DNA of 64,000 nucleotides from Minisyncoccota bacterium (GTDB taxonomy: Bacteria > Patescibacteriota > Minisyncoccia > Phycocordibacterales > SBAW01): positions 128,001 through 192,000 of the forward strand of contig DASZWM010000006.1 of assembly GCA_035546615.1 (NCBI GenBank), written 5' to 3'. A program made the translations under genes and the position numbers. This document shows positions 29,077 through 60,143 of the stretch, one piece after another. The first letter of the stretch is position 1. Every line of letters begins with the position of its first letter. Below the pieces are notes generated by a model. The model did no database searches. It saw only the letters and a program-made list of their open reading frames with translations, and was not told the DNA's origin.

Positions 29077-29080
29077 TACC

Positions 29081-30726: not shown

Positions 30727-30773
30727 TATAAACTCCTCCTTTGCTTCCCTGCCCCAGCTTTCCCTTATGCCTA

Positions 30774-30803
30774 TTGACATACTTTATAATGATATGTTAT
30801 GAT
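30774..30803 (+). promoter_or_regulatory. Near-consensus promoter TTGACA-N18-TATGAT, followed by a leader hairpin (TGAAC-GGAAA-GTTCA) and a perfect SD (AAGGAGGTGA)
   Basis: -35 at 30774-30779, -10 at 30798-30803, GGAGGT at 30827-30832. Confidence 0.55.
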
Positions 30804-30836
30804 ACATGAACGGAAAGTTCATTGAAGGAGGTGACT

Positions 30837-31088: not shown

Positions 31089-31117
31089 GTCGAAGATGGG
31101 GCGATAGCGTAGCATTA

Positions 31118-31148
31118 GGCGGGAGAGAAATCTCCCGCCTTTTCTTTT
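31118..31148 (+). terminator. Rho-independent terminator (GGCGGGAGAGAAATCTCCCGCC plus TTTTCTTTT)
   Basis: 8-bp stem plus T-run. Confidence 0.75.
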
Positions 31149-31234
31149 GATACGTTTTGCGACGCCGCTTCAGATAATTGAATTTGTGCGACACTTATAA
31201 CCTCGCGACCCGGCTGGTACAATGACTGGTACGC

Positions 31235-38013: not shown

Positions 38014-38019
38014 AGTGGT

Positions 38020-39126
38020 TTAAGCCGTGTGCCGCATCCTTCTGGACACGCTTAGTATAACGCCCGCTTCGGCCAGCGCCATGGCGAGCGCCGTGCCGCC
38101 GTGGGAGACGAATATAAGCGGCACGCCGACAAGCGGCACGAGGCCAAGGGTAGAGGCGATATTAAAGAAAGACTGTCCCACCATTAGGACCACAAGTCCG
38201 ACTACCAAAAGGCCGCCGAAGGGGTCCGGCGCGCGCGCGGCGATGCGCAGGCCGAGCAGGCCAAGCGTCAGAAACAGTCCCACTAAGAGGACGCTGCCGA
38301 CAAAACCGAACTCCTCGCCTGCCACGGCGAATATTGAGTCGCCCACCGGCTCGGGAAGGTAGGAAAATTTCTGGATGCTTTGGCCCAGTCCTTTGCCGAC
38401 AAATCCGCCCGAGCCTACCGCAATAAGCGACTGCTGTATCTGCCAGCCCGCGCCCTTCGGGTCCTGCGACTGGTTAAGGAATGTCTCGATGCGCTCGGAG
38501 ACGTGCGGGTACACCATCGCCGCTCCGGCTATCGCGGCGACTCCTATGAGCGCGAGCAGGCCCAGATGCATGACGCGTCCTCCTGCGGCGAACAGCACGC
38601 TCACTGACGCGGCGCCTATCATGACCACGCCAGCGGTGTTCGGCTGTGCCAGAAGGATGAGCGCCGCCGGGCCCGCAATGGCCAGAAGCGGAAGGATGCC
38701 GCCCTTGATAGTTTGGACCGCCTTCATGCGTCCGGCATACCATGCGGCGAGCATGGCGACGGTCGCAAGCTTAAGTATCTCTTCCGGCTGGAATGAGACG
38801 GGTCCCAGGTCTATCCACCTTGAGGCGCCTTTAAGCTCTAGCCCGATGTGCGGTACGAAGGTAAGGAGCGTCAGGCCGATGGCGAATGCGAAGAAATGCG
38901 GCGTGTACGGCCGCCAAGCGCGGTAATCGAGCCGGGAAATGACGAAGCACGCGACCGAGCCGCAGATGAGGCCCAGAAGCAGCTGGCTTACCGCCACGGA
39001 AGAGAATGAAGCGCCGTTTCGCGCGAGAAGGCCGAGCGCGGCGGAAGTGAATATAAGCAGGCCGAAGGCGACTATCGCGCATAGCACGAGCAGGAACGGC
39101 GTATCGGGGGACTTTTTCGTACTCAT
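38020..39126 (-). CDS. ftsW: SEDS-family peptidoglycan glycosyltransferase FtsW/RodA
   Basis: ~10 TM helices; conserved GDSIFAVAGEEFGFVGS region. Confidence 0.9.
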   Translation of the reverse strand: MSTKKSPDTPFLLVLCAIVAFGLLIFTSAALGLLARNGASFSSVAVSQLLLGLICGSVACFVISRLDYRAWRPYTPHFFAFAIGLTLLTFVPHIGLELKGASRWIDLGPVSFQPEEILKLATVAMLAAWYAGRMKAVQTIKGGILPLLAIAGPAALILLAQPNTAGVVMIGAASVSVLFAAGGRVMHLGLLALIGVAAIAGAAMVYPHVSERIETFLNQSQDPKGAGWQIQQSLIAVGSGGFVGKGLGQSIQKFSYLPEPVGDSIFAVAGEEFGFVGSVLLVGLFLTLGLLGLRIAARAPDPFGGLLVVGLVVLMVGQSFFNIASTLGLVPLVGVPLIFVSHGGTALAMALAEAGVILSVSRRMRHTA

Positions 39127-39132
39127 GATGAC

Positions 39133-40185
39133 CTACAGCAGCGCTATCGCCATGCCGACGATGCCGCACACGATGCCCACAACCCAGTAGCGCATGGTCA
39201 CCTTGTAGGGCGGCCAGCCTATCGCCTCGAAATGGTGGTGGAGCGGCGCGACACGCAGGAGTTTGCGATGCAGGAGCTTCTTGCTTGCTATCTGGGCAAG
39301 CACCGACAGCACGGTTACCACCAGTAAGAATGCGATAATGGGAAGCGCCAAAAGGCCGCGGCCGAGGCCGTGCAGGTCGGTAAGGAACACGATTACGACG
39401 AGCGCTAGCGTAAGCCCCATCGTGCCGGTTTCCGACATATAGAACCGGGCGGGGGGAATGTTGAACCACAAGAACGCCAGCAAGGCTCCCACGATAGCAG
39501 CGCACAGCGCCGCAATATTGAATTGCCCCTGAAAGAATGCGATGCCCGCGTACGCGGCGAATATGCTGCCGTACACGCCTCCCGAAAGCCCGTCGATGCC
39601 GTCTATGACCGCGCCCGCATACAAGGACAGCGCCACCAGCATAAAGAACGGGATAAACAGGATGCCGAGATCAAGCGGTCCGGAGATGAACGGGAACGAA
39701 ATGGCCGACACGCCGAGCTTGGAGTAGAACCACCACGCGGAAAGGAAGGAAACGAGCGCCACGACCCCCAGGCGCATGCGAAGCGGTATCCCGCGATGCC
39801 CGCGCACCTCATAGAGGTCGTCGATAAAGCCGACCAGCGCGCCTGCCGCGAGCGCCGCCAGAGGCAGCCACGTTTCCGCGCGGCTAATGAAGGCGAAGTT
39901 GCCGAACGTGTCCGGCATAAGCGCGGCCAGCGCGGCGAAGATTCCCGCGGTTACAAGCACGCTCCCCCACACCAGGATGCCGCCTGCGCGCGGGGTGCCG
40001 GTCTCGCGCTTCTCGTGCAGCTTGTTGAAGGTTTCTGCGGGCGTGCCGTCGAGCGACACTTTGTTCGCGCCGGCCTTCCAGAATTTATATTTGTACAGGA
40101 AATGGCTGAGGGTCGGCGTGGCCGCGATGCCCAGCACGAATGCGGCTGTCGCGGGCAAAAATATGCGCATGATGTCGAGTGTCAT
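39133..40185 (-). CDS. mraY: Phospho-N-acetylmuramoyl-pentapeptide transferase MraY
   Basis: MraY motifs (DDLYE..., IDGIDGLSGG, HHHFE). Confidence 0.93.
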   Translation of the reverse strand: MTLDIMRIFLPATAAFVLGIAATPTLSHFLYKYKFWKAGANKVSLDGTPAETFNKLHEKRETGTPRAGGILVWGSVLVTAGIFAALAALMPDTFGNFAFISRAETWLPLAALAAGALVGFIDDLYEVRGHRGIPLRMRLGVVALVSFLSAWWFYSKLGVSAISFPFISGPLDLGILFIPFFMLVALSLYAGAVIDGIDGLSGGVYGSIFAAYAGIAFFQGQFNIAALCAAIVGALLAFLWFNIPPARFYMSETGTMGLTLALVVIVFLTDLHGLGRGLLALPIIAFLLVVTVLSVLAQIASKKLLHRKLLRVAPLHHHFEAIGWPPYKVTMRYWVVGIVCGIVGMAIALL

Positions 40186-41093
40186 AACGAGGGTTGAGGG
40201 TGCGCTGCGGCGGCGCGGCGTGCCGCTTCTATCAAAGCCTTCACGTCCTCGAACCGCCCGTCGCGGCTGGAGCCCAGGACGGCAATGATGATGGGATGGC
40301 CGATATGGATATCGAATGCGGCGACCAGGTTGCCGCCCGCCAGATCAGTGTACCCCGTTTTGGCGGCTATAAGCCCGGGGATGCTCTGGAGCGGTACCGA
40401 CGTAGAGTCCGCCGTCAGCACGTGCTCGCCGGAGCGGATGGTTACCGACGGATTGGCTGTGGCCTCGAACAAGCCCGGATGCTCGCTCAGGAACGAGGCG
40501 ACAAGCACTGCCATGTCGCGCGCCGAGCCGTACGCACCGGCGGTCTCGAGGTCCACATCAAGGCCGGTCGGATTGCTGAAATAGGTGCGGGTAAGGCCCA
40601 GCTGGGCCGCGCGGAGGTTCATGGCGGCGATGGCTCCCCCGGGCACCGCATCAGCCGCAGCGGCCATCGCGTCGTTGCTCGAAGCGACAAGGCCGAACAC
40701 GAGCAGGTCGTGAATGTTCCACGTTTCGCCCGGGATAAAGCCCCAGTCCCCTTCGGGCTTGAGGTCGTCGGTCGTAATGGTTACTTGCGCGCCGGGCTTG
40801 GCAGCCGCAAGCACCGCCTCCGCCGACATGAGCTTGGTAAGGGACGCGAGCGGCAAAGGCGCATCCGCGTTCTTGGCATAGAGCATCTTCTTGTCGGTCG
40901 GATCGTACACGACGGCCGCCTTGGCGCTGATATCCACCGAATCGAGGCTCATCACGGTAGTGGCAGGCAAGGTGGGGAGGGTCGGATACAAAGGGTTCCC
41001 GCTGGCGTAGAGGCCGGTCAGCACAACGGCGCACACGAGGCTGGCGCCCGCAAGCGTATACAGTACCGCGGTGCTGTCAGGCATTTGTTTCAT
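40182..41093 (-). CDS. D-alanyl-D-alanine carboxypeptidase (S11, PBP5-like)
   Basis: SxxK (ASLTKLM), SxN (SSND), KTG (KTGYT); N-terminal anchor. Confidence 0.85.
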   Translation of the reverse strand: MKQMPDSTAVLYTLAGASLVCAVVLTGLYASGNPLYPTLPTLPATTVMSLDSVDISAKAAVVYDPTDKKMLYAKNADAPLPLASLTKLMSAEAVLAAAKPGAQVTITTDDLKPEGDWGFIPGETWNIHDLLVFGLVASSNDAMAAAADAVPGGAIAAMNLRAAQLGLTRTYFSNPTGLDVDLETAGAYGSARDMAVLVASFLSEHPGLFEATANPSVTIRSGEHVLTADSTSVPLQSIPGLIAAKTGYTDLAGGNLVAAFDIHIGHPIIIAVLGSSRDGRFEDVKALIEAARRAAAAHPQPSL

Positions 41094-43613: not shown

Positions 43614-44228
43614 TTAAAGGCTCTTGATGTCCTTAACTATCTCCGGAAACTGCTCTTGATTCTGGTGTTTCCTGTCTTCGAATATTCGAACGGTAGCGTT
43701 GGGAAGCAAGTTACGATACTTCTCAAGCTCGTCGATATTTACGATAGGATCATCTTTACTGTGGTATAGGAATATCTTTCCGGCTTGTTTTTCGAATTTC
43801 TCAAGAGAGCTGGGCAGGACGAATTCGCTTACGACCCTCTGAGTCTCTCCTTTTCCGCGCATCTCAAATGGAGCTGCGACTAGAAATACTCCATTTATCT
43901 TTTTTGGGAACTCCTCTTCGGACAAGTATCTCGCCAAGAATATGCCTCCAAGCGAATGGCCTACCAATATAACTCCATGTTCTATGAAAGGAATGAATCT
44001 TTCGAACCATATCTTCCACTCCGGATATCGGGCATTTTCCTTATTGGGCATGCCGGGATATATAACCTCGTATTCATCGCCAAGGCTCTGAGGAAGCCTG
44101 CTTTTCCAGTCCCCACCGCCTTTGAACTTATCGATATAAATCGGCTTAGTCTTGAGATTGTTAAGAAAATCCTCGTAAGTTGGAAAAGCAGAACTGCCAC
44201 CATGTATGACTACAACTTGTTTTTTCAT
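43614..44228 (-). CDS. Alpha/beta hydrolase, RBBP9/YdeN-like serine hydrolase (DUF1234)
   Basis: VVVIHGGSS...ILVGHSLGG (GxSxG) ... HSKDDPIV pattern; 204 aa. Confidence 0.7.
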   Translation of the reverse strand: MKKQVVVIHGGSSAFPTYEDFLNNLKTKPIYIDKFKGGGDWKSRLPQSLGDEYEVIYPGMPNKENARYPEWKIWFERFIPFIEHGVILVGHSLGGIFLARYLSEEEFPKKINGVFLVAAPFEMRGKGETQRVVSEFVLPSSLEKFEKQAGKIFLYHSKDDPIVNIDELEKYRNLLPNATVRIFEDRKHQNQEQFPEIVKDIKSL

Positions 44229-45490
44229 TATAGTATCTTATTAGCTGCGTCTAATCCTGTTGCTAAGGCTGCTTCGACAGTGGCTGCCTCTCTACCTTGA
44301 TATAACGCTTCGCCTGCGAAAAATATCTTGTTATCTATTGGCTCCAAAAGTTCCGTTTTTGCTGCCGCGGTAGACGGCTTTGCGTAACTATAAGCGCCTT
44401 TTGCATAGGGGTCAGCAGACCAATTTATCACGCGAAAGTGCTTAAGCTCGCTTTGCAGCATTTCTTTCGAAACTTTCAAGATGGTTGCAAGCGTATCAAG
44501 AGAGCGACTTACCACTATTTCGTCGCTTAACCCTTCGAATTCCTTAACCTTAGGGCCCGCAAGCCAGCCGGTAAGCATTGGAATCTCTTCCGGGTACTGC
44601 GTCCACCATGCCCCGAACTCCTCGTTAGTAAGCAGCAATATCATCTTGCTCAGATCATGTTCATTCGCCTGTGCCCACCAGCGAGATTTGAACTTCAAGA
44701 GCACTTTTATTACGCCGCCAAATCCGATGTTTTGTGCTGCCTGGATCTTTTCCGGCTGCTCCGGCGTAAAGGAAATATTTGGCAAAATCGAAGTCGGCAC
44801 GGTTACAAGGACTTTCTGGGCCTCAAATATTTTTCCATCAGAGCACGTTATTTTTATAGTGTCGGTCGATGTATCTATTCCCTGTACTACAGTATGCAAC
44901 TGTATCTCTACTCCAAGTCTTTTGCACTCATTTTGTAAAAACTTCACAAGCGCTCCATACCCCTCCTTCAATTTTGCCTGCTCTCCCATGCCTTCGCTCA
45001 TCCACTCGTCGCGCAGCATGTACATGCTTACTTCCGCCGGGTCGGCTGCGTCGTACCCTTCAGCCATCCGCGTTACCGCATTGCGTAGACCTTCGTATTT
45101 TTCTTCCAAAAAATGCGTATCCAGGAATTTGGCAAGCGGCATATCTTCCTCAAGGACTTTTAACTTCTCCTGCAGTGCGTCCATATCGGGAACGATAAAG
45201 GGAGCCTGCGAAAGTTCGCCGTTGCGGGCATTCCAAATTTCTCCATCGCGCACTAATACCGTTAGCCCAGCGTCTTGTGCGAGAGCCCTGGTAACAGGAG
45301 TAGCTCCGTGTATAAACTCTGCACCGGCTTCTGCAGGAAAGCCGAATTCATCGGCAGGTAAAGTGTAAATGCGCCCTCCGACGCGATCGCGCGCTTCCAG
45401 AATAGTCACTTTCTTTCCGGCCTTCGCGAGCTCTCGCGCAGCCATAAGTCCCGCAGCTCCGGCGCCTACAATAATTACCCCAGTATCCAT
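44228..45490 (-). CDS. FAD-dependent amine oxidase family oxidoreductase
   Basis: Dinucleotide-binding IIVGAGAAGLMAARELAKAGKKVTILEARDRVGGR; amine-oxidase fold length. Confidence 0.8.
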   Translation of the reverse strand: MDTGVIIVGAGAAGLMAARELAKAGKKVTILEARDRVGGRIYTLPADEFGFPAEAGAEFIHGATPVTRALAQDAGLTVLVRDGEIWNARNGELSQAPFIVPDMDALQEKLKVLEEDMPLAKFLDTHFLEEKYEGLRNAVTRMAEGYDAADPAEVSMYMLRDEWMSEGMGEQAKLKEGYGALVKFLQNECKRLGVEIQLHTVVQGIDTSTDTIKITCSDGKIFEAQKVLVTVPTSILPNISFTPEQPEKIQAAQNIGFGGVIKVLLKFKSRWWAQANEHDLSKMILLLTNEEFGAWWTQYPEEIPMLTGWLAGPKVKEFEGLSDEIVVSRSLDTLATILKVSKEMLQSELKHFRVINWSADPYAKGAYSYAKPSTAAAKTELLEPIDNKIFFAGEALYQGREAATVEAALATGLDAANKIL

Positions 45491-45521
45491 GTTCTAGATA
45501 AGTTTGAAAAAACTTAGGACT

Positions 45522-45896
45522 CTAGATTTTTTTAACAGTAAAGTAAGAACTAGCGACAGTCTTCTCACCAATGAGAATTTCTACATCGTAGCGACCTTCT
45601 TTCTCAACGGGGAACCCTTGAAGTCTATGTATAAATTGATGACGAAAGTTTTTTGGTTCAAAAGTTGTTGAATCCCTTCCAATTTCTTTTCCTTCACAGG
45701 AGATCCTAAATGATTCCATATATTGCTTATTTTGTTGGTCAGCCGGTATTTCAATATTGACAACAATGCACATACTGCTATGTATTGCAGGAAAGCCAGG
45801 TACATTTATAGAATCAAACACACCTCTGATATTTAATTTTTTGTCGTTCTCAGAAATTTCGGCCGAATCACACAAAAGAATGAAATTTGGTTTCAT
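45522..45896 (-). CDS. Hypothetical protein (124 aa), AT-rich
   Basis: ORF on the same strand and with the same composition as its island neighbours; no family recognised. Confidence 0.45.
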   Translation of the reverse strand: MKPNFILLCDSAEISENDKKLNIRGVFDSINVPGFPAIHSSMCIVVNIEIPADQQNKQYMESFRISCEGKEIGRDSTTFEPKNFRHQFIHRLQGFPVEKEGRYDVEILIGEKTVASSYFTVKKI

Positions 45897-45935
45897 AAAA
45901 ACTATTTTAGCATGTAAAAAAATATTTGTCTAATT

Positions 45936-47381
45936 TCATTTTATTTCCTTTTCTGTGGAACTATTCTCAGTCTCAAAAGAATTAGAAGAAGAAGGCAAGG
46001 TAAAGTCTTTCGTAGTTTGCGTTACCCCTAACTCATTGTAATCAATCTCTGGATTTGAGTTAATACGTTGATCAATCCGGTTCATATCGCGTGGGAAGGC
46101 GGACGCTTCTTTAACGTTCGCGAGGTTAAGCATTTTCATCGTGAGGCGCTCGAGCCCGGTTGAGCAGCCGCCGTGCGGCGGCATACCGTACTTGAAGGCC
46201 TGGAGATAGAAGGCGAACTTCGCTGTGTCCATACCGCGCAATTTCATCTTCTCGATCAATTCATCGTAGTTATGGATGCGCTGCGAGCCGGAGTTGATCT
46301 CGAGCCCGCGGAAGAGGAGGTCGAAGCTACGGCTAAACTCCGGGTCCTCCGGGTCGGGGTAGGTGTAGAACGCGCGCTTCTTGGTCGGGAAGTGCGTAAT
46401 AAAGATAAAGTCGGAGCTGAGCTTCTCCTTGGCGTATTGGCAGATCTGGCGCTCGTGCTCGGGCTCAAGGTCGAGCTCTCCTACTGCCTTGCCGCCGAAC
46501 TCTTTCTCGATTATTTCTTGTGCTTCGCGCAAGGTGAAGGTTGGGAATGGTCCCTGCGGCAGCAGCGCCGGCTCCACCTTGAAGCGCTTCAGCGCGTCGA
46601 TATGCTTCTCAGCAACAGTCGTCGATATAGTTCGTATCACCTTCTCGAGCATCGCCATCACGTCCTTGTGCGAATCGACGAAGCCCATTTCGAACTCAAG
46701 CTGCGTCAGCTCGGCCAAATGCCGCGTCGTTGCGCTTTTCTCGGCGCGGAAGGTCTTGGCTACGGTCATCGAGCGCTCGAACGGCCCGACCATTATCTGC
46801 TTATAGAGCTGGCCGCTGGTCGCCAAGTACGCCTGCTTGCCGTAGTAGTCTTCTATCTTGAATACCGCCGCGCCTCCTTCGGCGTCGCCGCCCACCAGGA
46901 CCGGCGCTTGGAATTCGGTAAAGCCTTCATCGCGCAATGCGTTCCTGAACGCGTTGACGATGGTTGCCTGCACGGTAAAGATGTCGCGCGTGCGCTCGAT
47001 GCGCAGCGTGAGCGGCAGATTGTCGAAATGCGTGTCGATATTGAGCTCCGCGTCCATCGCAAACGGCAGCGAGTGCGCTTCCGAAAGCACTTTTATGCCC
47101 GTAATTTCAAGCTCGATGTTGCCGTTGGGGACGTCGCGGCGCATCTTCTCCGGCCGCTCGTTCACCTTGCCCTCGATGCGCACGACCCACTCTTGCTTTA
47201 GCTTCTGCGCCACCTCAAGCACCTCCGGCTTGCCGAATACGACGCCCTGTACCTTGCCGGAGCGGTCGCGGAAGTCGAAAAAGGCCATCTTGCCCTGGTT
47301 GCGCGCGACATCCACCCAGCCGCCGATGGATACGGTTTCTCCGATATGCTTGCTCAAATCTCCAATTAAAGTCCGTTCCAT
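45936..47381 (-). CDS. aspS: Aspartyl-tRNA synthetase, archaeal/eukaryal type (class IIb; possibly non-discriminating), with a ~45-aa low-complexity C-terminal tail. Start likely MERTLIGDL (the track uses 47450)
   Basis: OB-fold N-terminus, motif 2 FRAE, motif 3 GGCSTGLERL, FPRD near the canonical end, then an AT-rich-encoded tail ...NSNPEIDYNELGVTQTTKDF.... AspRS versus AsnRS cannot be fully resolved by eye. Confidence 0.8.
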   Translation of the reverse strand: MERTLIGDLSKHIGETVSIGGWVDVARNQGKMAFFDFRDRSGKVQGVVFGKPEVLEVAQKLKQEWVVRIEGKVNERPEKMRRDVPNGNIELEITGIKVLSEAHSLPFAMDAELNIDTHFDNLPLTLRIERTRDIFTVQATIVNAFRNALRDEGFTEFQAPVLVGGDAEGGAAVFKIEDYYGKQAYLATSGQLYKQIMVGPFERSMTVAKTFRAEKSATTRHLAELTQLEFEMGFVDSHKDVMAMLEKVIRTISTTVAEKHIDALKRFKVEPALLPQGPFPTFTLREAQEIIEKEFGGKAVGELDLEPEHERQICQYAKEKLSSDFIFITHFPTKKRAFYTYPDPEDPEFSRSFDLLFRGLEINSGSQRIHNYDELIEKMKLRGMDTAKFAFYLQAFKYGMPPHGGCSTGLERLTMKMLNLANVKEASAFPRDMNRIDQRINSNPEIDYNELGVTQTTKDFTLPSSSNSFETENSSTEKEIK

Positions 47382-47418: not shown

Positions 47419-48360
47419 TTATAGAGCCACGCCGACTTTTTGCCTGACATCCGCCATCTTAGCCGATGCTATCGCGCGGGCCTTTTCGGCTCCTTCGCGC
47501 AGGATCTGCTTAACCTGCTCGTCGGTTATATTTGCGCGCCTTTCCCGCATAGGGTCAATCGCAGCCTCTATGTCTTCCACAAGCGCGTCTTTCAGAACTT
47601 TGTAGCTGCCCTTATTCGCCGCATACAAGCTTTCAAGCTCGCTTTCGCTCTTAAAGAGCTTATGGATCGCGTACACATGCTCGGGGCGCTCGCCAGAGGA
47701 GTCGGTCACGATGCTCATGACCGCTTTCGATATCTCGTCTTTGGTGCCGAAGAGTGGAATGGTGTTCTTATAGCTCTTGCTCATTTTCTGACCGTCGGTG
47801 CCGGGCACAGTGGCAACCTCTTCGGAGATCTTTTCTTGCGGTTCTTTGAACGTTTGTCCGTATGCATTATTGAACTTGCTCGCCGCCTCGCGAGCGTATT
47901 CAACATGCTGGCGCTGGTCGGCCCCTACCGGCACGATATCGGTATCATACAGAAGGATATCGGCAGCCATAAGCATTGGGTACGTAAAAAGGCCCGCGTT
48001 CGCCTCGAGTCCTTTCGCTACCTTGTCCTTATATGAGTGCGCCTGCATCAAAAATGGCACGGTAACCAAACAATCAAATATCCACGCCAGTTCTGTGTGC
48101 TCCTGCACATCTGACTGCTTGAATATGATAGCCTTGCTCGGATCTACTCCTGCAGCGACATAGTTCTTTACCACATCAATAATGTTCTGCTTCAGCACCG
48201 CCGGGTCTTTAAGGCTCGTGAGCGCGTGGTAATCAACGACCATGAGGAAGCTTTCGTACTGCTCGTATTCGCTCACAAAGGGCTTGAGCGCGCCGAAATA
48301 GTTGCCGATATGCAAGGTGCCGGAAGGCTGAAGGCCCGTCAAAAGCCGCTTTTTTGCCAT
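47419..48360 (-). CDS. trpS: Tryptophanyl-tRNA synthetase
   Basis: HIGH-like TLHIGNYFGA, KMSKS (QKMSKS); 313 aa. Confidence 0.93.
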   Translation of the reverse strand: MAKKRLLTGLQPSGTLHIGNYFGALKPFVSEYEQYESFLMVVDYHALTSLKDPAVLKQNIIDVVKNYVAAGVDPSKAIIFKQSDVQEHTELAWIFDCLVTVPFLMQAHSYKDKVAKGLEANAGLFTYPMLMAADILLYDTDIVPVGADQRQHVEYAREAASKFNNAYGQTFKEPQEKISEEVATVPGTDGQKMSKSYKNTIPLFGTKDEISKAVMSIVTDSSGERPEHVYAIHKLFKSESELESLYAANKGSYKVLKDALVEDIEAAIDPMRERRANITDEQVKQILREGAEKARAIASAKMADVRQKVGVAL

Positions 48361-48411
48361 ATGGCACTTAGTGTATCAGAAAATCCTTCCCTACCAAGGC
48401 TATTTCTATAC

Positions 48412-48440
48412 TTGACTTTCTACTTAAATAGGAGTATAAT
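48412..48440 (+). promoter_or_regulatory. Consensus promoter TTGACT-N17-TATAAT, 4 nt upstream of the ATG at 48445 (leaderless-type)
   Basis: -35 at 48412-48417, -10 at 48435-48440. Confidence 0.55.
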
Positions 48441-48444
48441 TAAC

Positions 48445-48843
48445 ATGAAACTGAACATTGGAGTACTAAAGATGCCAAAGTCAGAGAAGCCCAACGGTCT
48501 TACCGTCCTCCAGCGTTTTGTGACGGAGGAGATTTTCAAGGTCAGCGCAGAGATCGCCAAGAGATCACAGCAGACGGGAGTGAAGTCCCACACAGCTGCC
48601 TTTACTGCCGTCTTTGGGAAGCGTCTTGCGGTGCTTGATGCAATCTTGCTGGTGGTGAACCACCACCAGCACCGCCACAAAGGCTTATCGGAGAAGACTC
48701 GCCTCAATCTGATTCAGGCGGCAGAGACTTCTTTGTGGTCCTCCTCTCTTTCTGCAGACGGCGAGGAGGTGTCGCGCTATGTACCTCCCATGATGGAAGA
48801 AGACAAGATGCGCGAGTTGTTCCGTCTGATCCGTGCTGCCTAA
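48445..48843 (+). CDS. Hypothetical protein (132 aa; MKLNIGVLKMPKSEKPNG...HHQHRHKG...)
   Basis: The track ORF 48226-48843 is trimmed to the first ATG after the promoter; no family recognised. Confidence 0.5.
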   Translation: MKLNIGVLKMPKSEKPNGLTVLQRFVTEEIFKVSAEIAKRSQQTGVKSHTAAFTAVFGKRLAVLDAILLVVNHHQHRHKGLSEKTRLNLIQAAETSLWSSSLSADGEEVSRYVPPMMEEDKMRELFRLIRAA

Positions 48844-48846
48844 CCC

Positions 48847-48890
48847 GCCCGCAGAAGCCGTTCCGGCTCTGTCGGGCGGTTTCTGTTTAT
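48847..48890 (+). terminator. Terminator hairpin (CCGCCCG...CGGGCGG plus TTTCTGTTT)
   Basis: GC stem plus T-rich tract. Confidence 0.55.
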
Positions 48891-48892
48891 AT

Positions 48893-48950
48893 GACAACTA
48901 GAGTCATAGATAATTTAGTTGTCGTCACAACTAAATTTCTGCCGACCCCG
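48893..48950. repeat. Cluster of three ACAACTA(A) elements forming two nested inverted repeats (GACAACTA...TAGTTGTC...ACAACTAA) between the convergent genes
   Basis: Seen directly; no T-tract, so not a simple terminator. Confidence 0.5.
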
Positions 48951-49034
48951 CCTCAGCTATTTTGCTTGCTGGCAAAATATGCTTCCGGCCCGTGTAAGTG
49001 CAGCAAAAAGTAAAGCAGTTTACTTTTTTCAGCC

Positions 49035-50117
49035 TTACACGCCTTCTTCCTTGAGTTTCTCTATCAGTCCTTTAGCTGTTTTGGAGAGTTTTTGTGGCAG
49101 GATTATTTTAACGCGCACTATTAAATCGCCGCGCTTGCCCCGGCCCATAACTACGCCGCGGCCCTTTACCGAAATAGTCTCGCCATGCGTGATGCCGGGT
49201 GGAATAGAGAGGGCCTCTTCCCCGTCGAGTGTTTGAATTTTATATTCTGCACCCAAAAGCGCGTCGGAAAGCTTTACCGAAAGGTCGGTCATGATATGCG
49301 CGCCTTCTTTCTTAAAGCGCGGATCGGGGCTGACGTGCACTTTTACGTACAGGTCGCCTGAGGCTCCGCCCGCCACCGCCTCCCCCGAGCCGGTAAGGCG
49401 TATCATCTCGCCGCCCTCAATGCCCGCGGGCACGACTATCTCTATCTCTTCCTGCTTCTTGTAGACGCCTTCGCCGCGGCAGGTGTGGCATTTTTCCTTC
49501 GGAACTTTGCCGGTGCCGTGGCATTGCGGACAGACCCGCGTCATCGAGATGGAACCGAAGAACGAGTTGTTGGTCTCGTGGATCTTGCCCGCGCCGTTGC
49601 ACTTGTTGCAGGTCTCGAGCTTGGTGCCCGGCTCGGCGCCGGAGCCGCCGCAGGTCTCGCATTGCGCGGTCTTGGCAAGAAGCACGCGGCGGGTCGTGCC
49701 GAATACGGACTCCTTAAAGGAGATCTCTAAATCTATGGAAATGTCGCGGCCGCGGCGCTGGCGCGTGCCGCCGCCCTGAAAGAGGTCGCTGAATACGTCG
49801 CTAAAGTCGAAGCCTCCCATGCCGCCGTTGAATGCGTCCTGGAATTGCGAGAAGTCGAAGCCCTGTCCGCCGCCGAAACCGCCCTGGTTGGGATTGCCGC
49901 CGCTGAACGTGCGGCCGTAGGAATCGTACTCGGCGCGCTTCTTTTCGTCGGAAAGTATTGAGTATGCTTCGGAAACCTCTTTGAATTTGTCGGAATCACC
50001 GGAGCTTTTGTCCGGGTGGAATTTATGCGCGAGCTTGTGGAACGCTTTCTTTATCTCATCCTTGGTGGCCTTTTTATCGACTCCCAGGATCTCGTAATAG
50101 TCGCGGTTCCCTGCCAT
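49035..50117 (-). CDS. dnaJ: Chaperone DnaJ
   Basis: J-domain with HPD (FHPDK), Gly-rich linker, four CxxCxGxG repeats. Confidence 0.95.
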   Translation of the reverse strand: MAGNRDYYEILGVDKKATKDEIKKAFHKLAHKFHPDKSSGDSDKFKEVSEAYSILSDEKKRAEYDSYGRTFSGGNPNQGGFGGGQGFDFSQFQDAFNGGMGGFDFSDVFSDLFQGGGTRQRRGRDISIDLEISFKESVFGTTRRVLLAKTAQCETCGGSGAEPGTKLETCNKCNGAGKIHETNNSFFGSISMTRVCPQCHGTGKVPKEKCHTCRGEGVYKKQEEIEIVVPAGIEGGEMIRLTGSGEAVAGGASGDLYVKVHVSPDPRFKKEGAHIMTDLSVKLSDALLGAEYKIQTLDGEEALSIPPGITHGETISVKGRGVVMGRGKRGDLIVRVKIILPQKLSKTAKGLIEKLKEEGV

Positions 50118-50135
50118 AATTCCATTATTCTACCG

Positions 50136-51980
50136 CTATTTTTCGTCTTCCGCAAGCTCCTCCTCTTCCGGGGCTTCCTTCAAAGCTGCCTCGGCATCAT
50201 CATCAATTATGAAACCGCCCGCCTGTATGCTCCAGAGCTTATGGTACAAACCTTTCTGCTGCAGAAGCTCCTCGTGCGTGCCTGACGCCACGACTTTGCC
50301 GTTTTCAAGTACGACGATGCGGTCCATTTTCATGATAGTGCTGAGGCGGTGCGCGATAACGATGACGGTCTTGCCGCGCATAAGCACCTCAAGCGCGTCC
50401 TGAATGAGCGCTTCCGACTCGGAGTCGAGGCTCGAAGTCGCTTCGTCGAGCACCAGTATCGGTGCATCCTTCAGTATTGCGCGAGCAATAGCAACGCGTT
50501 GGCGTTCGCCGCCTGAAAGCTTGATGCCCCGCTCGCCCACGAATGTGTTATAGCCTTCCGGCAGATGCGCGATGAACTCGTGGCAATGCGCTTTGCGCGC
50601 CGCCTCGATGACTTCCTCGTCAGAAGCGTCGCGGCGGCCGTAGCGGATGTTCTCCATAAGCGTCCGGTGGAAAAGAATCGGCTCCTGCGGGACGAAGGAA
50701 ATAGCGTCGCGCAGGCTCTCTTGCGTGACATCCGCGATGTTCTGGCCGTCCACTTCTATAGACCCGCCCTTAAGATCGTACAGGCGCAGCAAGAGCTTCG
50801 TGATGGTCGTTTTCCCCGCTCCGGAGGGCCCGACAAGCGCGATCTTCTCCCGCGGCGCGATGCTAAGCGTGAAATCCTCCAATATGCTGCGGTTGTCGTG
50901 GAAGCGGAACTGGACATTCCTGAAAGAGACCTGTCCCTCCGCAACCTTCAGCGCCTGCGCGCCCTTTTTGTCCCGGATCTCATGCGGCGTTATGAGGATC
51001 TCCACCATTTCGCTGGCGTCCGCGAACGCATCGTAGAAGCGCCGGAGCTCGCGGTTGATGCCCACCAGGCGGTCGAACGTGGTCAGAAGGTACGATTGGA
51101 TAAGCACGAAGTCGCCGATGGTGAGAAGCCCTTCCTGCCACAGCAGAACGCCGCCGTAGAGAAGGCCTATCTCGATGACGGTCATAAAGAGCCCGATGCC
51201 GGCCCAGATCCAGTCGTCCGTCATCCAGGAGCGCAGGCTCGCCTTGCGCCATGCGTCTATCGCCTCGCCGTAGCGCTTATTCTCGTACGACTTGCCGGAA
51301 AACAAATCGATAGTCGCCTGGTTGGAGACCGCGTCCGCCAAGGCTGCCGTAGTGCGCGTCTCCGCCTCGGAGCGGGCGATGCGGACAGGCTGGCGCAGGT
51401 GCGCGACGAACACCTGGAACGTTATAAAGCAGACAGCCCATACGGCAAGCGCGATGCCCAGCATGTGGCTGCGCATGAACAGAACCGTTACCGCGCCGGC
51501 CACGAACAGGAAGGTGGGAAAGAACGATATGACCACGTTGTCGAACAGCATTTCGAAGGAGCGCACGTACTTGCTCAGCTTATGCGTGAGCGAGCCCGCG
51601 AAGTGGGAAACGAAGAAATTGTAGGAGTGCCCGATAAGGTAGGAGAAGGACGACGAATACAGGCTGGTCATCACCTTCGCGGTGAAATAATTATTGCTCT
51701 GTCCCTGCACGCGCCTGGCCGCCCACTCGCCCAGATAGATGAGGGTTACGATGGCGAGTATGCCGCCCAGCGTATGCACGGTTTGGGCGTCCGGATGCGG
51801 GGTGGTGGCCAGTATGTTGAAGAAGTTGCGCAGGTACCAGGGCGCCGCCAGGCTTGCGAGCTGGATGCCGACGCCGCCCAGGATGATAAGCGATAGAAGC
51901 CCGGGGTATGCCCTGACTTCCGTAAAATACGCGCGGAACACCGCGCCGGCTTTCGCCCGCTTTTTCTCCTGTTTCGGCAT
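50136..51980 (-). CDS. ABC exporter, fused permease-ATPase (MsbA/multidrug-exporter type), encoded between dnaK and dnaJ
   Basis: Six-TM ABC_membrane domain plus Walker A GPSGAGKTT, LSGGERQR, ILVLDEAT. Confidence 0.9.
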   Translation of the reverse strand: MPKQEKKRAKAGAVFRAYFTEVRAYPGLLSLIILGGVGIQLASLAAPWYLRNFFNILATTPHPDAQTVHTLGGILAIVTLIYLGEWAARRVQGQSNNYFTAKVMTSLYSSSFSYLIGHSYNFFVSHFAGSLTHKLSKYVRSFEMLFDNVVISFFPTFLFVAGAVTVLFMRSHMLGIALAVWAVCFITFQVFVAHLRQPVRIARSEAETRTTAALADAVSNQATIDLFSGKSYENKRYGEAIDAWRKASLRSWMTDDWIWAGIGLFMTVIEIGLLYGGVLLWQEGLLTIGDFVLIQSYLLTTFDRLVGINRELRRFYDAFADASEMVEILITPHEIRDKKGAQALKVAEGQVSFRNVQFRFHDNRSILEDFTLSIAPREKIALVGPSGAGKTTITKLLLRLYDLKGGSIEVDGQNIADVTQESLRDAISFVPQEPILFHRTLMENIRYGRRDASDEEVIEAARKAHCHEFIAHLPEGYNTFVGERGIKLSGGERQRVAIARAILKDAPILVLDEATSSLDSESEALIQDALEVLMRGKTVIVIAHRLSTIMKMDRIVVLENGKVVASGTHEELLQQKGLYHKLWSIQAGGFIIDDDAEAALKEAPEEEELAEDEK

Positions 51981-52003
51981 GTTTTCTACAGTAGCACGAA
52001 CCT

Positions 52004-53914
52004 TTACTTGGCCTCCGGATTATCGTTGGGGGCTGATTGTGAGCCTGCTTCGCCCGGCGGAGGCGTTTGACCGTCCTGGGGAGCGGATTGAGAGCCTGCG
52101 GCCTTCTGCACCGCTTCGTAAACCTTCGAGAGTTCCTTTGAAAGCTCCTCGGCGGCCGATTTGAGCGCGGCTGCGTCGTCGCTTCCCTTCTTGCCCTCAA
52201 CTGCGGCGATTTTCTCGTTTATAGAAGCCTCGAGCTCCGCCGGAACCTTGCCCTTGTTGTCGGCAAGCGCCTTTTTGGCGCCGTAGACCAGCTGTTCGGC
52301 CTGGTTGCGGGCTTCGGCTATCTCCATTTTCTGCTTGTCGCTGGCGGCATTGGCCTCCGCGTCCTTCTTCATGCGCTCAATATCGGCGTCGGAAAGGCCC
52401 GAGCGGGCTTCGATGCGAATGGTCTGCTCCTTGCCGGTCGCCTTGTCCTTTGCCTTGACCGAAAGGATGCCGTTTGCGTCCACGTCGAAGGTGACCTCTA
52501 TTTGCGGCAGGCCCCGGGGCGCCGGCGGAATGCCGTCAAGCACGAACTGGCCAAGCGACTTGTTGTCGGATGCCATGGCGCGCTCGCCCTGGGTGATGTG
52601 TATCTCTACGGACGTCTGGTTGTCGGCTGCGGTCGAGAAGGTCTGCGATTTGCTGGTCGGAATAGTGGTATTGCGCTCAATAAGCTTGGTTGACACGCCG
52701 CCCATGGTCTCGATGCCGAGGGAAAGCGGAATAACGTCCAAGAGGAGCACGTCCTTCACTTCGCCACCCAAGATGCCGCCCTGGATGGCGGCGCCTATTG
52801 CCACCACTTCGTCGGGGTTGACCGACATATTCGCCTTGCGGCCGAAGAACTTCTCTACCGCCGCCTGGAGCGCCGGCATCCGGGTCTGGCCGCCCACCAG
52901 AATGACCTCGTTGATATCGCCGACCTTAAAGGGAGAGGCTTCCATGGCGCGCTTGGTTATGGCCATAGCGCGGTCGACGAACTCCGCGGCGAGCTCCTCG
53001 AGCTTCGCGCGGGTCATCTTGATAAGCAGGTGGCGCGGGCCCGAAGCGTCGGAGGTGAGGAACGGGATGTTTACCTCGGTCTCAACGGCCGTTGAAAGCT
53101 CGATCTTGGCCTTTTCCGCCGCCTCGTCGAGGCGCTGGCGCGCGAGCGGGTCATTGCGCACGTCGATGCCGGACTCCTTCTGGAACTCGGTCGCGAGGAA
53201 GTCGATTATCTTCTGGTCGATATCCTTGCCGCCCAGGTGCGCATCGCCGTCGGTGGACTTAACCTCGATGGCGCCCTCGCCCTCGGTGGACATGCCGACC
53301 TCGAGGATGGAGATGTCGAAGGTGCCGCCGCCGAAGTCGAACACCGCTATCTTTTCGTCCTTTTTCTTGTTGAATCCGTACGCGAGCGCGGCCGCGGTCG
53401 GCTCGTTGATGATGCGCTTTACGTCCAGGCCCGCTATTTTGCCGGCGTCCTTGGTCGCCTGACGCTGGGAGTCGTTGAAGTATGCCGGAACGGTGATGAC
53501 CGCTTCGGTAATAGGCTCGCCGAGGCGCTTTTCAGCGTCCGCCTTGAGCTTGGCGAGGATCATCGCCGAAACCGCTTCAGGCGTGTACCATTGGTCGCCC
53601 ATCTGCACCTCTATGCCGCCGCTTGAGGTCTTGCGCATCTCGTAGGGCACCGCGCCTTTGTCCTTCTGAACCGCCGGCTCGTCGAACGTGTGGCCGATGA
53701 AGCGCTTTATCTGATAGACCGTGTTCTTGGGGTTGGTAACTCCCTGGCGGCGGGCGATGAGGCCCACCAGGCGCTCGCCGGTCTTGCTGGTTGCCACGAC
53801 CGAGGGCATAGTGCGCGCCCCTTCCGAAGTTTCAAGAATGGTCGCTTCGCCGCCCTTCATCACCGCCATTGCGGAGTTAGTGGTGCCCAGGTCTATGCCG
53901 AGAATTTTTGCCAT
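52004..53914 (-). CDS. dnaK: Chaperone DnaK (Hsp70)
   Basis: [15 protein letters not shown]..., DLGGGTFD, canonical Hsp70. Confidence 0.97.
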
Positions 53915-53941
53915 AGTATTTTATAGATTAATTGCTAAATT

Positions 53942-54454
53942 TTAAGATTGTTTGTAGCTGCCTACCGACACTTGCGCCGGTCTGATGACGAAATCACCAA
54001 TACTATATCCGGAGCGTTCTACCGAGACAATAGTGTGCTCTTTTTCTGCCGAATCCACCGCGACTTCGCGCAGCGCCTCGTGCTTGTGCGGGTCAAATTT
54101 CTCGCCCGCGGCGCCATATTGCTCTATGCCCATGCGCTTAAGGGTGCCGAGGAGCTGCTTGTAGAGCACTTCAAGCTCCTTTGAGGCCCCATGCTTGGCT
54201 GACATCTCGAACGAGTCGAGTACCGGGATAAGCTCCTCCGCAAGGCCGGCCTTCGTGCGCTCCTGCATGTACTGGCGCTGCGTAGCCTCATCCTTTTTGT
54301 AGTTGGCGAGGTCCGCCTGCGAGCGCTGCCAGCCCTCAAGGTTGGTCTTTGCTTCCTCTTCTGCCTTCGAGGCGCGGTCGCGGAGCTTCTTTATCGCCCC
54401 TGCGGGATTTTCCGCGTCTTCTTCCGGCACGAACTCATCGTCGATGTCGGACAT
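53942..54454 (-). CDS. grpE: Nucleotide exchange factor GrpE
   Basis: GrpE coiled-coil and C-terminal beta domain (...FDPHKHEAL...). Confidence 0.9.
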   Translation of the reverse strand: MSDIDDEFVPEEDAENPAGAIKKLRDRASKAEEEAKTNLEGWQRSQADLANYKKDEATQRQYMQERTKAGLAEELIPVLDSFEMSAKHGASKELEVLYKQLLGTLKRMGIEQYGAAGEKFDPHKHEALREVAVDSAEKEHTIVSVERSGYSIGDFVIRPAQVSVGSYKQS

Positions 54455-54463
54455 AGTGAAAAC

Positions 54464-54491
54464 ATTATACTCAAAATTTGAGATTGGTCAA
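54464..54491 (-). promoter_or_regulatory. grpE promoter TTGACC-N16-TATAAT (minus strand) with a 13-nt palindrome CTCAAAATTTGAG embedded in the spacer; ATG 9 nt downstream of the -10
   Basis: Reverse complement of 54464-54491; palindrome at 54470-54482. Confidence 0.55.
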
Positions 54492-54498
54492 GAAAAAA

Positions 54499-54520
54499 CC
54501 GGCTTTCGCCGGCTTTTCTT
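54499..54520. terminator. Bidirectional terminator (AGCCGGCGAAAGCCGGCT with A/T tracts) between rpsI and the grpE promoter; a second 10-bp inverted repeat CGAGTTTAGC-N4-GCTAAACTCG lies at 54551-54574
   Basis: Stem-loop with TTTTTT on the minus strand. Confidence 0.65.
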
Positions 54521-54747
54521 GAAGTATAGTTAGCGCTTGCGGCCACATGTCGAGTTTAGCCGTCGCTAAACTCGCACGCGGTCAGGCGTCGTTTTCTGCT
54601 GAAAACGCGCACGACCCTGGCTCGCGCCGTCGCGCTCCGCCTCTGAATCCTTCAGGTGTTCGGATTCAGCCCGCCTCGCCATTTTGCAAGTGCAAAATAT
54701 GGCTCCGGCCGTCTCGCGTTTAATAAAAGCAAAACTGATTGCTTTTA

Positions 54748-55161
54748 TTAGCGCTTCGACCACTGCTTGCGCTTGCGGGCTTTTCTGAGGCCGAACTTGC
54801 GGCGCTCTTTAGCGCGAGGGTCGCGCTTGAGGAAGCCCTCCTTCTTGAGGACGCCGCGCAGGTCGGCCTGATAGTCGACGAGCGCGCGGGAAATAGCATG
54901 GCGTACCGCGATAGCCTGCCCCGCGATGCCGCCGCCGCGGACAACGATGGTAACCGCGAACTGAACCGGCAAATTTACCTTGAGGAACGGCTCCATAGCC
55001 GCTATGCGAAGGGCTTCGGTATCAAAATACTTGTTCGCGTCCATGTTGTTTATGGAAACGATGGTGCGCGGGCCCGGCGTAAGGCGGGCGCGGGCGATAG
55101 CCGTCTTGCGGCGGCCGATGGTCTCTATATAGCGGTCTGTTTCTTTGGGTTTGGTTGCCAT
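54748..55161 (-). CDS. rpsI: 30S ribosomal protein S9
   Basis: ...GGGIAGQAIAVRHAISRAL... C-terminal KR-rich tail. Confidence 0.95.
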   Translation of the reverse strand: MATKPKETDRYIETIGRRKTAIARARLTPGPRTIVSINNMDANKYFDTEALRIAAMEPFLKVNLPVQFAVTIVVRGGGIAGQAIAVRHAISRALVDYQADLRGVLKKEGFLKRDPRAKERRKFGLRKARKRKQWSKR

Positions 55162-58841: not shown

Positions 58842-60143
58842 CTACTTTTGGGTGCCGGAAACCACGGTTATCTTGTCCGGATCGGCCGGGAAGCTCCCCT
58901 GCCAGAACGGACGGACCTTCGCCTCGGCGCGGCTAATGGCCGGCGCGAACGACTCAACTATGGCCTGGAAGGTGTCTTTTTTCTTGCCTACCAGCGCCGC
59001 TTTGAGGCCCGCCTGGTCGTACTGCCATACGAGGGTCGGGCTGCCGCCGAGCGTTATCGTAATATCCGCTCCCGGTTTCGTAGTGGTCGCGGCCGCAAGC
59101 GTCAGCTGGGAAACGTCCGCAAACGCGACCGGTTCGCCGTTGTAGGCGGACACTGAAGCGCGCGCGACAGCGGCGGCGAGCGCATCCACCTTCACTATGG
59201 CGCCCGTCATCGTTGCCGATTGCGCAAGAGTGGCGTTATTGGCGCCCGCGGGCGTCTGCGATGTATTGCTGAAGGTCAGCTGGAGGCTTCCGGGAATGAC
59301 GACGTAGTCTGCGGGGATCTGGGAGGTAAGCGAGGACTGAGCCGCCTGGCTCAAGCCCTGCTTGAGCGTGTCGGTGCCGCGGGCAAGATCGGCAGACGCG
59401 ACGGACGGCTCCGGCCCGACATATCCGCCGGAAATCGCCGAGGCCTGGGCATAGAACTTGTCGTAGCGCGGGTCGCTCTTGAAGCCGGGGATAGTGAAGC
59501 GCGTCTCGCCGCGATTGTACGCCTCGCCAGGCGAGTCCGCGTAGACGGTGGCGGTGGCCGAGCCGGGGGTAATAGTGCCGTCTGCGGCCTTCGTGCCGCC
59601 CGGTACCACGACGGAATCATGAATGCGGTAGATCTTGCCGTCCGGAGCCTCGAAGCGCGTATTGGCGATAAGGCGCTGGACATCGGTTCCCGCGGCATTG
59701 TAGATGGTGATGACGCCGGAGGCGCTGCGCGACACCTGCTTGGTGCCCGAGGCCGTAACGGTGGTGCTTGCCGAGCGCGTAACGGTCATCGTCTCGTAGC
59801 CGAGCTCGCCGCCCGCGGGATGCAGTTTTGCGGTAAGGGTAGCGGGCGGTGTTACCGGTTCCTGCTTCGGATACACGGTAACGGTCGCCCCCGCGAAAAG
59901 GGTCGAAAGGAGGAGGCCGGCCAGAGCGCACACCACGACGACCGCGGCTGCGATTATCACGAACAGGCGGCGGTTGCCCCGCGGGTGGCGGCGTATCATA
60001 GCAGGGCGTTCTTGGGGCATAGGGGTATCGATTTCGTCGTCCATATCCTGCGCGGGCGCGGCGCCGGTTTCGTGCCGGCGGCGCGAGGGAGATACCGGGA
60101 TGTTTCGGATAGAACGTCGCTCCGGGGGCACCATGTCGCGCAT
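58842..60143 (-). CDS. Hypothetical bitopic membrane protein (433 aa): Arg-rich cytoplasmic N-terminus, one TM helix, large Thr/Ser/Ala-rich extracytoplasmic domain
   Basis: TM helix LFVIIAAAVVVVCALAGLLLSTLF at ~residues 60-85; no catalytic motifs seen. Confidence 0.55.
   Translation of the reverse strand: MRDMVPPERRSIRNIPVSPSRRRHETGAAPAQDMDDEIDTPMPQERPAMIRRHPRGNRRLFVIIAAAVVVVCALAGLLLSTLFAGATVTVYPKQEPVTPPATLTAKLHPAGGELGYETMTVTRSASTTVTASGTKQVSRSASGVITIYNAAGTDVQRLIANTRFEAPDGKIYRIHDSVVVPGGTKAADGTITPGSATATVYADSPGEAYNRGETRFTIPGFKSDPRYDKFYAQASAISGGYVGPEPSVASADLARGTDTLKQGLSQAAQSSLTSQIPADYVVIPGSLQLTFSNTSQTPAGANNATLAQSATMTGAIVKVDALAAAVARASVSAYNGEPVAFADVSQLTLAAATTTKPGADITITLGGSPTLVWQYDQAGLKAALVGKKKDTFQAIVESFAPAISRAEAKVRPFWQGSFPADPDKITVVSGTQK

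Follow-up and report, generated by a model that had tools for sequence, protein, structure and literature searches.

The 64,000-nt stretch of DNA from an uncultured Minisyncoccota bacterium analysed here (hereafter the window) carries the Hsp70 genes grpE, dnaK and dnaJ on its minus strand, with a gene for an ATP-binding cassette (ABC) exporter placed between dnaK and dnaJ (Table 1). The open reading frames (ORFs) and their Pfam and NCBIfam matches agree with a sequence-only reading of this DNA, which had described grpE, dnaK, a 614-residue ABC exporter and dnaJ in this order, and the gaps that it gave after dnaK and before dnaJ measure 23 nt and 18 nt, respectively; the grpE–dnaK gap is A-rich and 27 nt long. 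The four genes thus share one strand and are separated by short gaps, as the members of a single operon would be. The GC content of the exporter gene (0.58) is the same as that of its neighbours, consistent with a native gene, and the arrangement is not an assembly oddity, because many relatives keep the same order. The upstream neighbour of grpE is rpsI, and dnaJ is followed by a structured element, a convergent ORF and then trpS. Canonical chaperone operons have the order grpE-dnaK-dnaJ or hrcA-grpE-dnaK-dnaJ. Like these, the window cluster has grpE, dnaK and dnaJ in order on one strand behind a strong sigma-70-type promoter; unlike these, it has the exporter gene between dnaK and dnaJ, rpsI upstream instead of hrcA, no controlling inverted repeat of chaperone expression (CIRCE) and apparently leaderless transcripts.

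The exporter is an ABCB-type (type IV) half-transporter, containing an N-terminal ABC_membrane domain (PF00664, E = 1.9e-25) and a C-terminal nucleotide-binding domain (ABC_tran, PF00005, E = 8e-32), and its translation preserves the ATPase motifs intact, i.e., Walker A GPSGAGKT, signature LSGGERQR, Walker B ILVLDEATS and H-loop IAHRL. In domain composition, half-transporter length and intact ATPase motifs it resembles Sav1866, MsbA, Atm1 and ABCB6, and its PDB sequence matches include ABCB6 (E = 7e-96), an Atm1-type exporter (9e-91) and Sav1866 (9e-90), with the ABCB1 halves also among the nearest. An identical protein is deposited under a Candidatus Paceibacterota metagenome-assembled genome. 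Unlike the named ABCB exporters, the window protein scores below the curated NCBIfam cut-off of every specific ABC equivalog, so its substrate class is not assignable by NCBIfam. The MsbA lipid A flippase model (TIGR02203) was rejected at 381.7 bits against a cut-off of 602. Cells of the Candidate Phyla Radiation (CPR) lack an outer membrane and lipid A, which makes an MsbA-like role unlikely. The fold is clear; the protein is most likely a conserved housekeeping ABCB-type homodimeric transporter. At two related loci, L089 (4143–5972) and L090 (4136–5935), the exporter in the same slot is only 53–54% identical to the window protein, while DnaK is 86–90% identical; this suggests either fast evolution or a swap for another lineage of the gene.

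The window was examined together with 160 related loci (labelled L001 and so on), 161 sequences in total. We counted TAnnnT hexamers ending 5–10 nt before the start codon, with start codons chosen independently of the motif and controls taken inside coding sequence. Such a hexamer precedes grpE in 26 of 28 cases (control 2/252), the ABC gene in 59 of 80, 34 of them with an upstream TG (control 66/720), and dnaJ in 24 of 36 (control 13/324), but dnaK in only 5 of 32 (control 6/288); the controls stand at 1–9%. The sequence-only reading had itself named independent promoters in relatives as what would speak against co-regulation of the exporter with the Hsp70 genes, and this distribution of promoter-like elements, present before ABC and dnaJ and largely missing before dnaK, is of that kind.

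Each of the three elements in the window has counterparts in the relatives. The grpE promoter TTGACC-N16-TATAAT, as originally proposed, matches 11 of 12 consensus positions, and the architecture TTGACn-N16-(T-run, TG)-TAnAAT-N8-10-ATG recurs before grpE in about 35 relatives. Because its -10 box ends 9 nt before the ATG, the grpE transcript would be nearly leaderless. Before the ABC gene, the candidate extended -10 promoter of the window reappears as TGcTAGAGT-7-ATG in L089, the closest relative by DnaK (90% identity), and the orthologs generally have TGnTAnnnT 6–8 nt before the ATG; the ABC ortholog sited next to tsaD, valS and tsaC also keeps its own start-proximal TAnnnT. A TTGTCAA(A) box is conserved just upstream of this extended -10, about 6–7 nt from the TG (L009, L012, L016, L058, L064, L073, L090, L100, L031, L034 and L057); it is too near for a normal -35 and may serve as a regulator site or as an atypical promoter element. 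Before dnaJ, the -35 box of the candidate promoter sits inside the last ABC codons, which encode ..ELAED... Close to the ABC stop, TTGC[AG] is present in 27 of 40 loci with dnaJ next versus 3 of 45 without dnaJ next; this sequence encodes the LAE of an otherwise unconserved acidic exporter tail, and a CTTGCr box also precedes dnaJ in relatives where the box is intergenic. The CTTGCrGA codons of the exporter tail (window 50136–50160) therefore appear to double as the dnaJ -35 box. In Bacillus subtilis, the dnaK operon is heptacistronic and has an internal vegetative promoter before dnaJ, a situation resembling the apparent own promoter of the window dnaJ. Since dnaK lacks its own promoter-like element and is preceded by an A-rich gap of 27 nt, it is probably co-transcribed with grpE.

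The distances between -10 box and start codon, 9 nt for grpE, 7 nt for ABC and 9 nt for dnaJ, and the lack of a Shine-Dalgarno (SD) sequence give all three the pattern of leaderless genes, for which a -10 box roughly 10 nt upstream of the start codon is the accepted signature (PMC3160421 and PMC6028130). The pattern extends beyond the cluster: 16 of 45 long ORFs in the window (36%) have TAnnnT 5–10 nt before their first ATG, versus 5% of all ATG triplets. SD-like 4-mers show no enrichment in the window (6/45 long ORFs, or 13%, versus 14% of all ATG triplets). The absence of an SD before the ABC gene, as first reported, is thus correct, but it is a window-wide trait rather than a peculiarity of the exporter. 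These figures point to widespread leaderless transcription in this Paceibacteria genome. In having a -10 box 5–10 nt before the start and no SD, the window genes are like those of Actinobacteria, Deinococcus and the GeneMarkS-2 "leaderless" class (PMC3160421 and PMC6028130); unlike known leaderless genes, they are adjacent at only 15–25 nt, with promoter boxes inside the upstream coding sequence. Literature searches returned no specific description of leaderless genes in Patescibacteria or Paceibacteria.

The start-proximal TAnnnT hexamers might alternatively be AT-rich signals for starting translation in an organism that works without SD sequences, in which case the cluster could be one operon or several. 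Such a reading would fit the lack of SD enrichment in the window and the translation of dnaK with neither an SD nor a -10 box, only an A-rich upstream region. However, the motif bears the -10 signature T1, A2 and T6, often with TG one base further upstream, it is accompanied at 16–17 nt by a TTGAC box (grpE) or a TTGCr box (dnaJ), and 27 of 32 genomes lack it before dnaK, even though dnaK must be highly translated. We consider a purely translational role of the motif distinctly unlikely.

On balance, the cluster is probably best described as three adjacent transcription units, grpE-dnaK, ABC and dnaJ, with likely read-through between them and with an exporter that is no dedicated member of a heat-shock regulon. 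In this model, the strong sigma-70-type promoter before grpE would drive grpE-dnaK as a nearly leaderless transcript, the extended -10 promoter 6–8 nt upstream of the ABC start codon would yield a leaderless mRNA for the exporter, and a TTGCr-N17-TAnnnT promoter would drive dnaJ, its -35 box having been absorbed into the codons of the acidic C-terminal tail of the exporter. A housekeeping ABCB-type exporter gene would have come to lie between dnaK and the dnaJ promoter; in the window genome and its nearest relatives the dnaK–ABC gap has shrunk to 15–23 nt without a terminator, and transcription reading through from the grpE promoter probably contributes to the expression of ABC and dnaJ in this sub-lineage. 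Consistent with separate units, at least 8 of 32 relatives with the dnaK-ABC-dnaJ order have a hairpin and T-run terminator after dnaK. A single operon would have no internal promoters or terminators, whereas this cluster has conserved promoter-like elements before ABC and dnaJ, and some of its relatives, though not the window genome, have those dnaK terminators.

Several points weigh against the three-unit model. The ABC -10 hexamer of the window, TACTGT, is weak and has no -35 box; promoter and terminator function are here deduced from motifs; and neither the 23-nt nor the 18-nt gap of the window genome contains a terminator, so read-through from the grpE promoter is possible and a single transcript from grpE to dnaJ would be compatible with these gaps. 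In addition, the ABC gene is linked to dnaK and dnaJ in two different orders across deep divergence, which could reflect selection for co-expression, not inherited synteny.

A rival to this model is a true four-gene heat-shock operon, transcribed as one mRNA from the grpE promoter, in which the exporter would be co-regulated with Hsp70 and could, for example, export peptides or damaged material under stress or flip lipids. The common strand and short gaps agree with it, as does the lack of a terminator after dnaK in L001, L002 and L089 as well as in the window, and the linkage recurs as both dnaK-ABC-dnaJ and dnaK-dnaJ-ABC although DnaK is only 64–73% identical. We nevertheless regard such an operon as fairly unlikely, given the conserved promoter-like elements at ABC and dnaJ, the dnaK terminator that at least a quarter of the relatives have, the unrelated genes inserted within the cluster in relatives, the location of the exporter ortholog elsewhere in about half of the related genomes, the absence of a recognisable heat-shock operator and the conserved synteny of the whole surrounding gene backbone, which weakens the argument from linkage. 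Of the original proposal that a co-transcribed exporter implies heat-shock co-regulation, the gene order and the possibility of read-through hold; that this is the only or the best reading does not, considering the exporter's own promoter-like element and the terminators of relatives.

The gene order of relatives was surveyed from two anchors. An ABC-anchored scan with one genome per species yielded 80 loci across Paceibacteria with exporter orthologs of 57–76% identity, which were sorted by tblastn with the four window proteins. About 37 of them have grpE-dnaK-ABC-dnaJ in the same order and strand, 3 have grpE-dnaK-(x)-dnaJ-(x)-ABC, and about 40 carry the exporter elsewhere, mostly upstream of tsaC and in divergent orientation to tsaD and valS. 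The second scan, of metagenomes, was anchored on dnaJ and is unbiased as to ABC; it gave among close relatives (DnaJ at least 67% identical) 10 loci with ABC before dnaJ, 13 with dnaK directly before dnaJ and 2 uninformative ones (23 informative); distant lineages mostly show dnaK-dnaJ, and 4 further loci show dnaK-dnaJ-ABC. Over the 161 sequences the tally is 39 dnaK-ABC-dnaJ (including the window), 4 ABC-dnaJ, 7 dnaK-dnaJ-ABC and 34 dnaK-dnaJ without ABC. In all, about 43 loci of related Paceibacteria have the window's order; the 7 dnaK-dnaJ-ABC loci are more distant, and in roughly 13 close relatives with adjacent dnaK and dnaJ the exporter ortholog lies beside tsaD/valS. Extra genes lie between dnaK, ABC and dnaJ in about 10 relatives. 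The synteny comparison that the sequence-only reading had called for thus places the order in many relatives, as a trait of a clade and not of the window genome, and the ABC-in-Hsp70 order appears to be a lineage-typical variant of a clade of Paceibacteria mostly labelled Adlerbacteria-like. Neighbour-joining trees of ABC and DnaJ have such short internal branches that they do not separate one rearrangement from several. Literature searches found nothing specific on a dnaK/ABC arrangement in Parcubacteria. At eight Kaiserbacteria-type loci (L014, L015, L019, L023, L033, L041, L062 and L069), the exporter lies beside tsaD/valS and an Hsp20-type gene lies 3–4 genes off on the opposite strand, which is probably a coincidence.

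The backbone rpoA-rplQ-rplM-rpsI-grpE-dnaK-dnaJ...trpS-aspS is syntenic across the Paceibacteria lineages examined, so that linkage alone is weak evidence for shared function, and the association of the exporter with the Hsp70 genes may be largely inherited synteny. A real functional coupling of the exporter with Hsp70 stays conceivable because the linkage persists in two gene orders, yet we rate it as fairly to quite unlikely. In its more specific form, the exporter would act in Paceibacteria as a partner of the Hsp70 system, and its expression would have become tied to grpE-dnaK when the dnaK terminator was lost in the sub-lineage, a scenario that seems quite unlikely; by analogy with mitochondrial Mdl1/ABCB10, such a partner might export peptides or other material arising from protein quality control.

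Sites and regulators of the known heat-shock systems were searched for directly. CIRCE (TTAGCACTC-N9-GAGTGCTAA) has no match with up to 4 mismatches in the window and one unrelated match in 1.58 Mb of related loci, and no site like the HspR-associated inverted repeat (HAIR; CTTGAGT-N7-ACTCAAG) lies near any dnaK cluster in the same 1.58 Mb. The window cluster therefore shows the operator sites of neither the HrcA/CIRCE-controlled nor the HspR/HAIR-controlled operon class. No HrcA domain was found among the 34 window ORFs scanned with Pfam, which agrees, as far as these ORFs go, with the reported absence of hrcA.

Two inverted sequences upstream of grpE remain to be considered, a palindrome in the promoter spacer (CTCAAA-A-TTTGAG, CTCAAAtTTTGAG, also written CTCAAANTTTGAG) and a 10-bp inverted repeat that had been likened to a CIRCE half-site. 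Either could in principle be the operator of a non-HrcA heat-shock repressor. The palindrome does overlap the spacer of the promoter, and the window contains it once, where 0.07 occurrences would be expected by chance. However, it is not conserved across the approximately 35 aligned grpE promoters, and the closest relatives that have this promoter architecture lack it (L089, L001, L002 and L073); at the same site L089 has aaacgtaaattttgtg and L001 has tcggctatttcctatg. Only the T-run and the TG of the extended -10 are common to the relatives in this region, and these promoters generally have a T-rich spacer with TG after it. The palindrome is thus real as a sequence, but its supposed regulatory role is not borne out: it is probably lineage-specific and not an operator. 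The inverted repeat is likewise present, but without a CIRCE-like function. Its half-sites are in the opposite order to those of CIRCE and separated by a 4-nt spacer, and it lies outside the grpE promoter region because an intrinsic terminator (GCCGGCGAAAGCCGG followed by T6) stands between it and the -35 box. Its hairpin covaries and is part of a repeated element, other copies of which follow dnaJ and tRNA genes. Taken together, these observations make an operator of an unrecognised repressor at either sequence very improbable.

The intrinsic terminator is GC-rich, abuts the grpE -35 box and is predicted to end transcription from rpsI and the structured element upstream; L001 and L089 have the same arrangement of terminator hairpin and promoter. 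Terminator and promoter overlap in many relatives: the -35 of grpE (TTGAC) falls within the loop or 3' arm of the hairpin that would terminate the rpsI unit, and the T-tail becomes the promoter spacer (about 60 nt upstream of grpE in L009, L012, L016, L022, L037, L043, L046, L050, L058, L064 and L065; window 54464–54512). The stems of these overlapping hairpins differ between genomes but always pair.

The inverted repeat CGAGTTTAGC-GACG-GCTAAACTCG is the second hairpin (Y) of a structured element of about 130 nt, hereafter P0-X-Y, which consists of a P0 hairpin (AAAAGCAAACUGCUUUGCUUUU), an X hairpin and the Y hairpin with its GACG loop. The 293-nt rpsI–grpE spacer folds much better than shuffled sequence (z = -8.5) and contains, 5' to 3' on the gene strand, P0 (AAAAGCAAnCnGnUUUGCUUUU) at the rpsI stop, X, approximately one degenerate unit, Y and the terminator. 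Searches with nhmmer and a covariance model (CM) built from 11 copies located others in the window and in relatives. Copies lie about 40 nt after the dnaJ stop in the window, L009 (9049–9148), L048 (8893–8992) and L088 (2606–2702); after rpsI in the window, L064 (2391–2487), L083 (3317–3412), L085 (1363–1460) and L104 (2100–2230); and after tRNA genes, i.e., tRNA-Glu in the window, tRNA-Phe in L060 (9891–9984) and tRNA-Val in L062 (8802–8895, minus strand). A further copy occupies 5–105 of L124. Every copy with an identified upstream gene is co-oriented with that gene. The X-Y array of the window escapes Tandem Repeats Finder because its units are too divergent.

Covariation was tested on a MAFFT alignment that had not been fitted to the structure. 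Paired positions can pair in 95.6% of cells versus 80.7% in shuffles, compensatory changes occur in 14 of 21 pairs versus 6.7 in shuffles, and none of the 500 shuffles attains the observed value; shifting the 3' partners by one to three columns lowers pairing to 33–45%. Since G-U pairs are frequent, the structure would be one of RNA on the gene strand. In Rfam 15, no model matches the window at the gathering threshold, and only chance-level matches appear at E up to 10 in 54400–54800 and 7400–7960. Group II intron domains V–VI, attC, REP/IS200-type hairpins, signal recognition particle RNA, 6S RNA and RNase P RNA were tried as identities and found no supporting match; the multiple, tandem copies argue against a single-copy housekeeping RNA. 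A scan of viral contigs for the element core gave 25 16-mer matches and one modest CM match (L161, 34.9 bits), and with only that one CM match the element is not a common phage-borne sequence.

ERIC, BOX, REP/BIME and Correia elements, as well as structured RNAs of 3' untranslated regions, are modular hairpins found after stop codons or terminators, co-oriented with the upstream gene and sometimes in tandem. P0-X-Y is like them in being modular, in its position after stops or terminators, in its co-orientation and in its occasional tandem arrangement. Unlike them, it has copies at orthologous positions in divergent genomes, with compensatory changes and G-U pairs, which argues for a selected RNA structure rather than selfish spread. 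P0-X-Y could serve as a 3'-end or termination module, or as an RNA-stability module, for highly expressed genes; bracketing the cluster after rpsI and after dnaJ, it may represent a new class of structured RNA that acts on the 3' ends of such genes. The element, though peripheral to the question of the exporter, is the most novel feature observed here. It has strong covariation support and is absent from Rfam, and would be a new RNA motif.

Table 1. Genes, promoter-like sequences, hairpins and copies of the structured element in the window.
Feature	Position	Strand	Description
grpE	53942–54454	minus	170 aa; ORF with Pfam/NCBIfam GrpE match
dnaK	52004–53914	minus	636 aa; Pfam match, NCBIfam above equivalog cut-off
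ABC exporter gene	50136–51980	minus	614 aa; ABC_membrane (PF00664) and ABC_tran (PF00005)
dnaJ	49035–50117	minus	360 aa; J domain, Zn-finger domain and C-terminal domain; above TIGR02349
grpE promoter	54464–54491	minus	-35 TTGACC (54491–54486), 16-nt spacer, -10 TATAAT (54469–54464)
Spacer palindrome	54470–54482		Inside grpE promoter spacer
Intrinsic terminator	54493–54512	minus	GC-rich hairpin with T6
Inverted repeat (Y hairpin)	54551–54574		10-bp arms, GACG loop
Candidate extended -10 promoter of ABC	51988–51996	minus	TG-c-TACTGT, 7 nt before ATG
Candidate dnaJ promoter	50127–50155	minus	-35 TTGCGG (50155–50150), 17-nt spacer, -10 TAGAAT (50132–50127), 9 nt to ATG
P0-X-Y copy between rpsI and grpE promoter	54539–54747	minus	nhmmer and CM matches
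P0-X-Y copy after dnaJ stop	48900–49030	minus	P0 (AAAAAAGTAAACTGCTTTACTTTTT), X and Y; CM 88.5 bits, E = 1e-17
Tandem array of 3–4 X-Y units	7500–7885	plus	After tRNA-Glu and a terminator-like hairpin; fold z = -12.8
Possible weak P0-X-Y copy after tRNA-Pro	25605–25692	minus	Weak match
GC-rich hairpin CCGCCCG...CGGGCGG	48844–48878		Between dnaJ unit and convergent plus-strand ORF; probable bidirectional terminator

If the three-unit reading is true, the gene order is a taxonomic and synteny marker for one clade of Paceibacteria, and the cluster is a clear case of these streamlined genomes packing independent, apparently leaderless transcription units end to end. This would matter when genes and operons are predicted in CPR genomes, since short gaps there are routinely taken to mean an operon; adjacency is insufficient to infer heat-shock co-regulation.

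Downstream of the cluster, the GC-rich hairpin between dnaJ and the convergent ORF is probably the real terminator here, acting in both directions; a weaker predicted hairpin (48862–48876) overlaps it. The convergent ORF itself (48226–48843, plus strand) is unannotated and has no Pfam match, and its real start probably lies well inside the ORF. Two other ORFs, 58842–60143 (minus) and 25892–26674 (plus), have no Pfam match either. Stretches of lower GC content occur at 28000–32000 and 44000–46000 (0.45–0.51 versus about 0.59), the latter containing a flavin amine oxidase gene (44228–45490), and these may be acquired segments. Cell-wall gene clusters at 36883–41093 (minus) and 3411–6233 (plus) encode MurG, FtsW, an MraY-like protein, a D-Ala-D-Ala carboxypeptidase, a penicillin-binding protein transpeptidase and a Mur ligase, and their presence indicates that the organism makes peptidoglycan.

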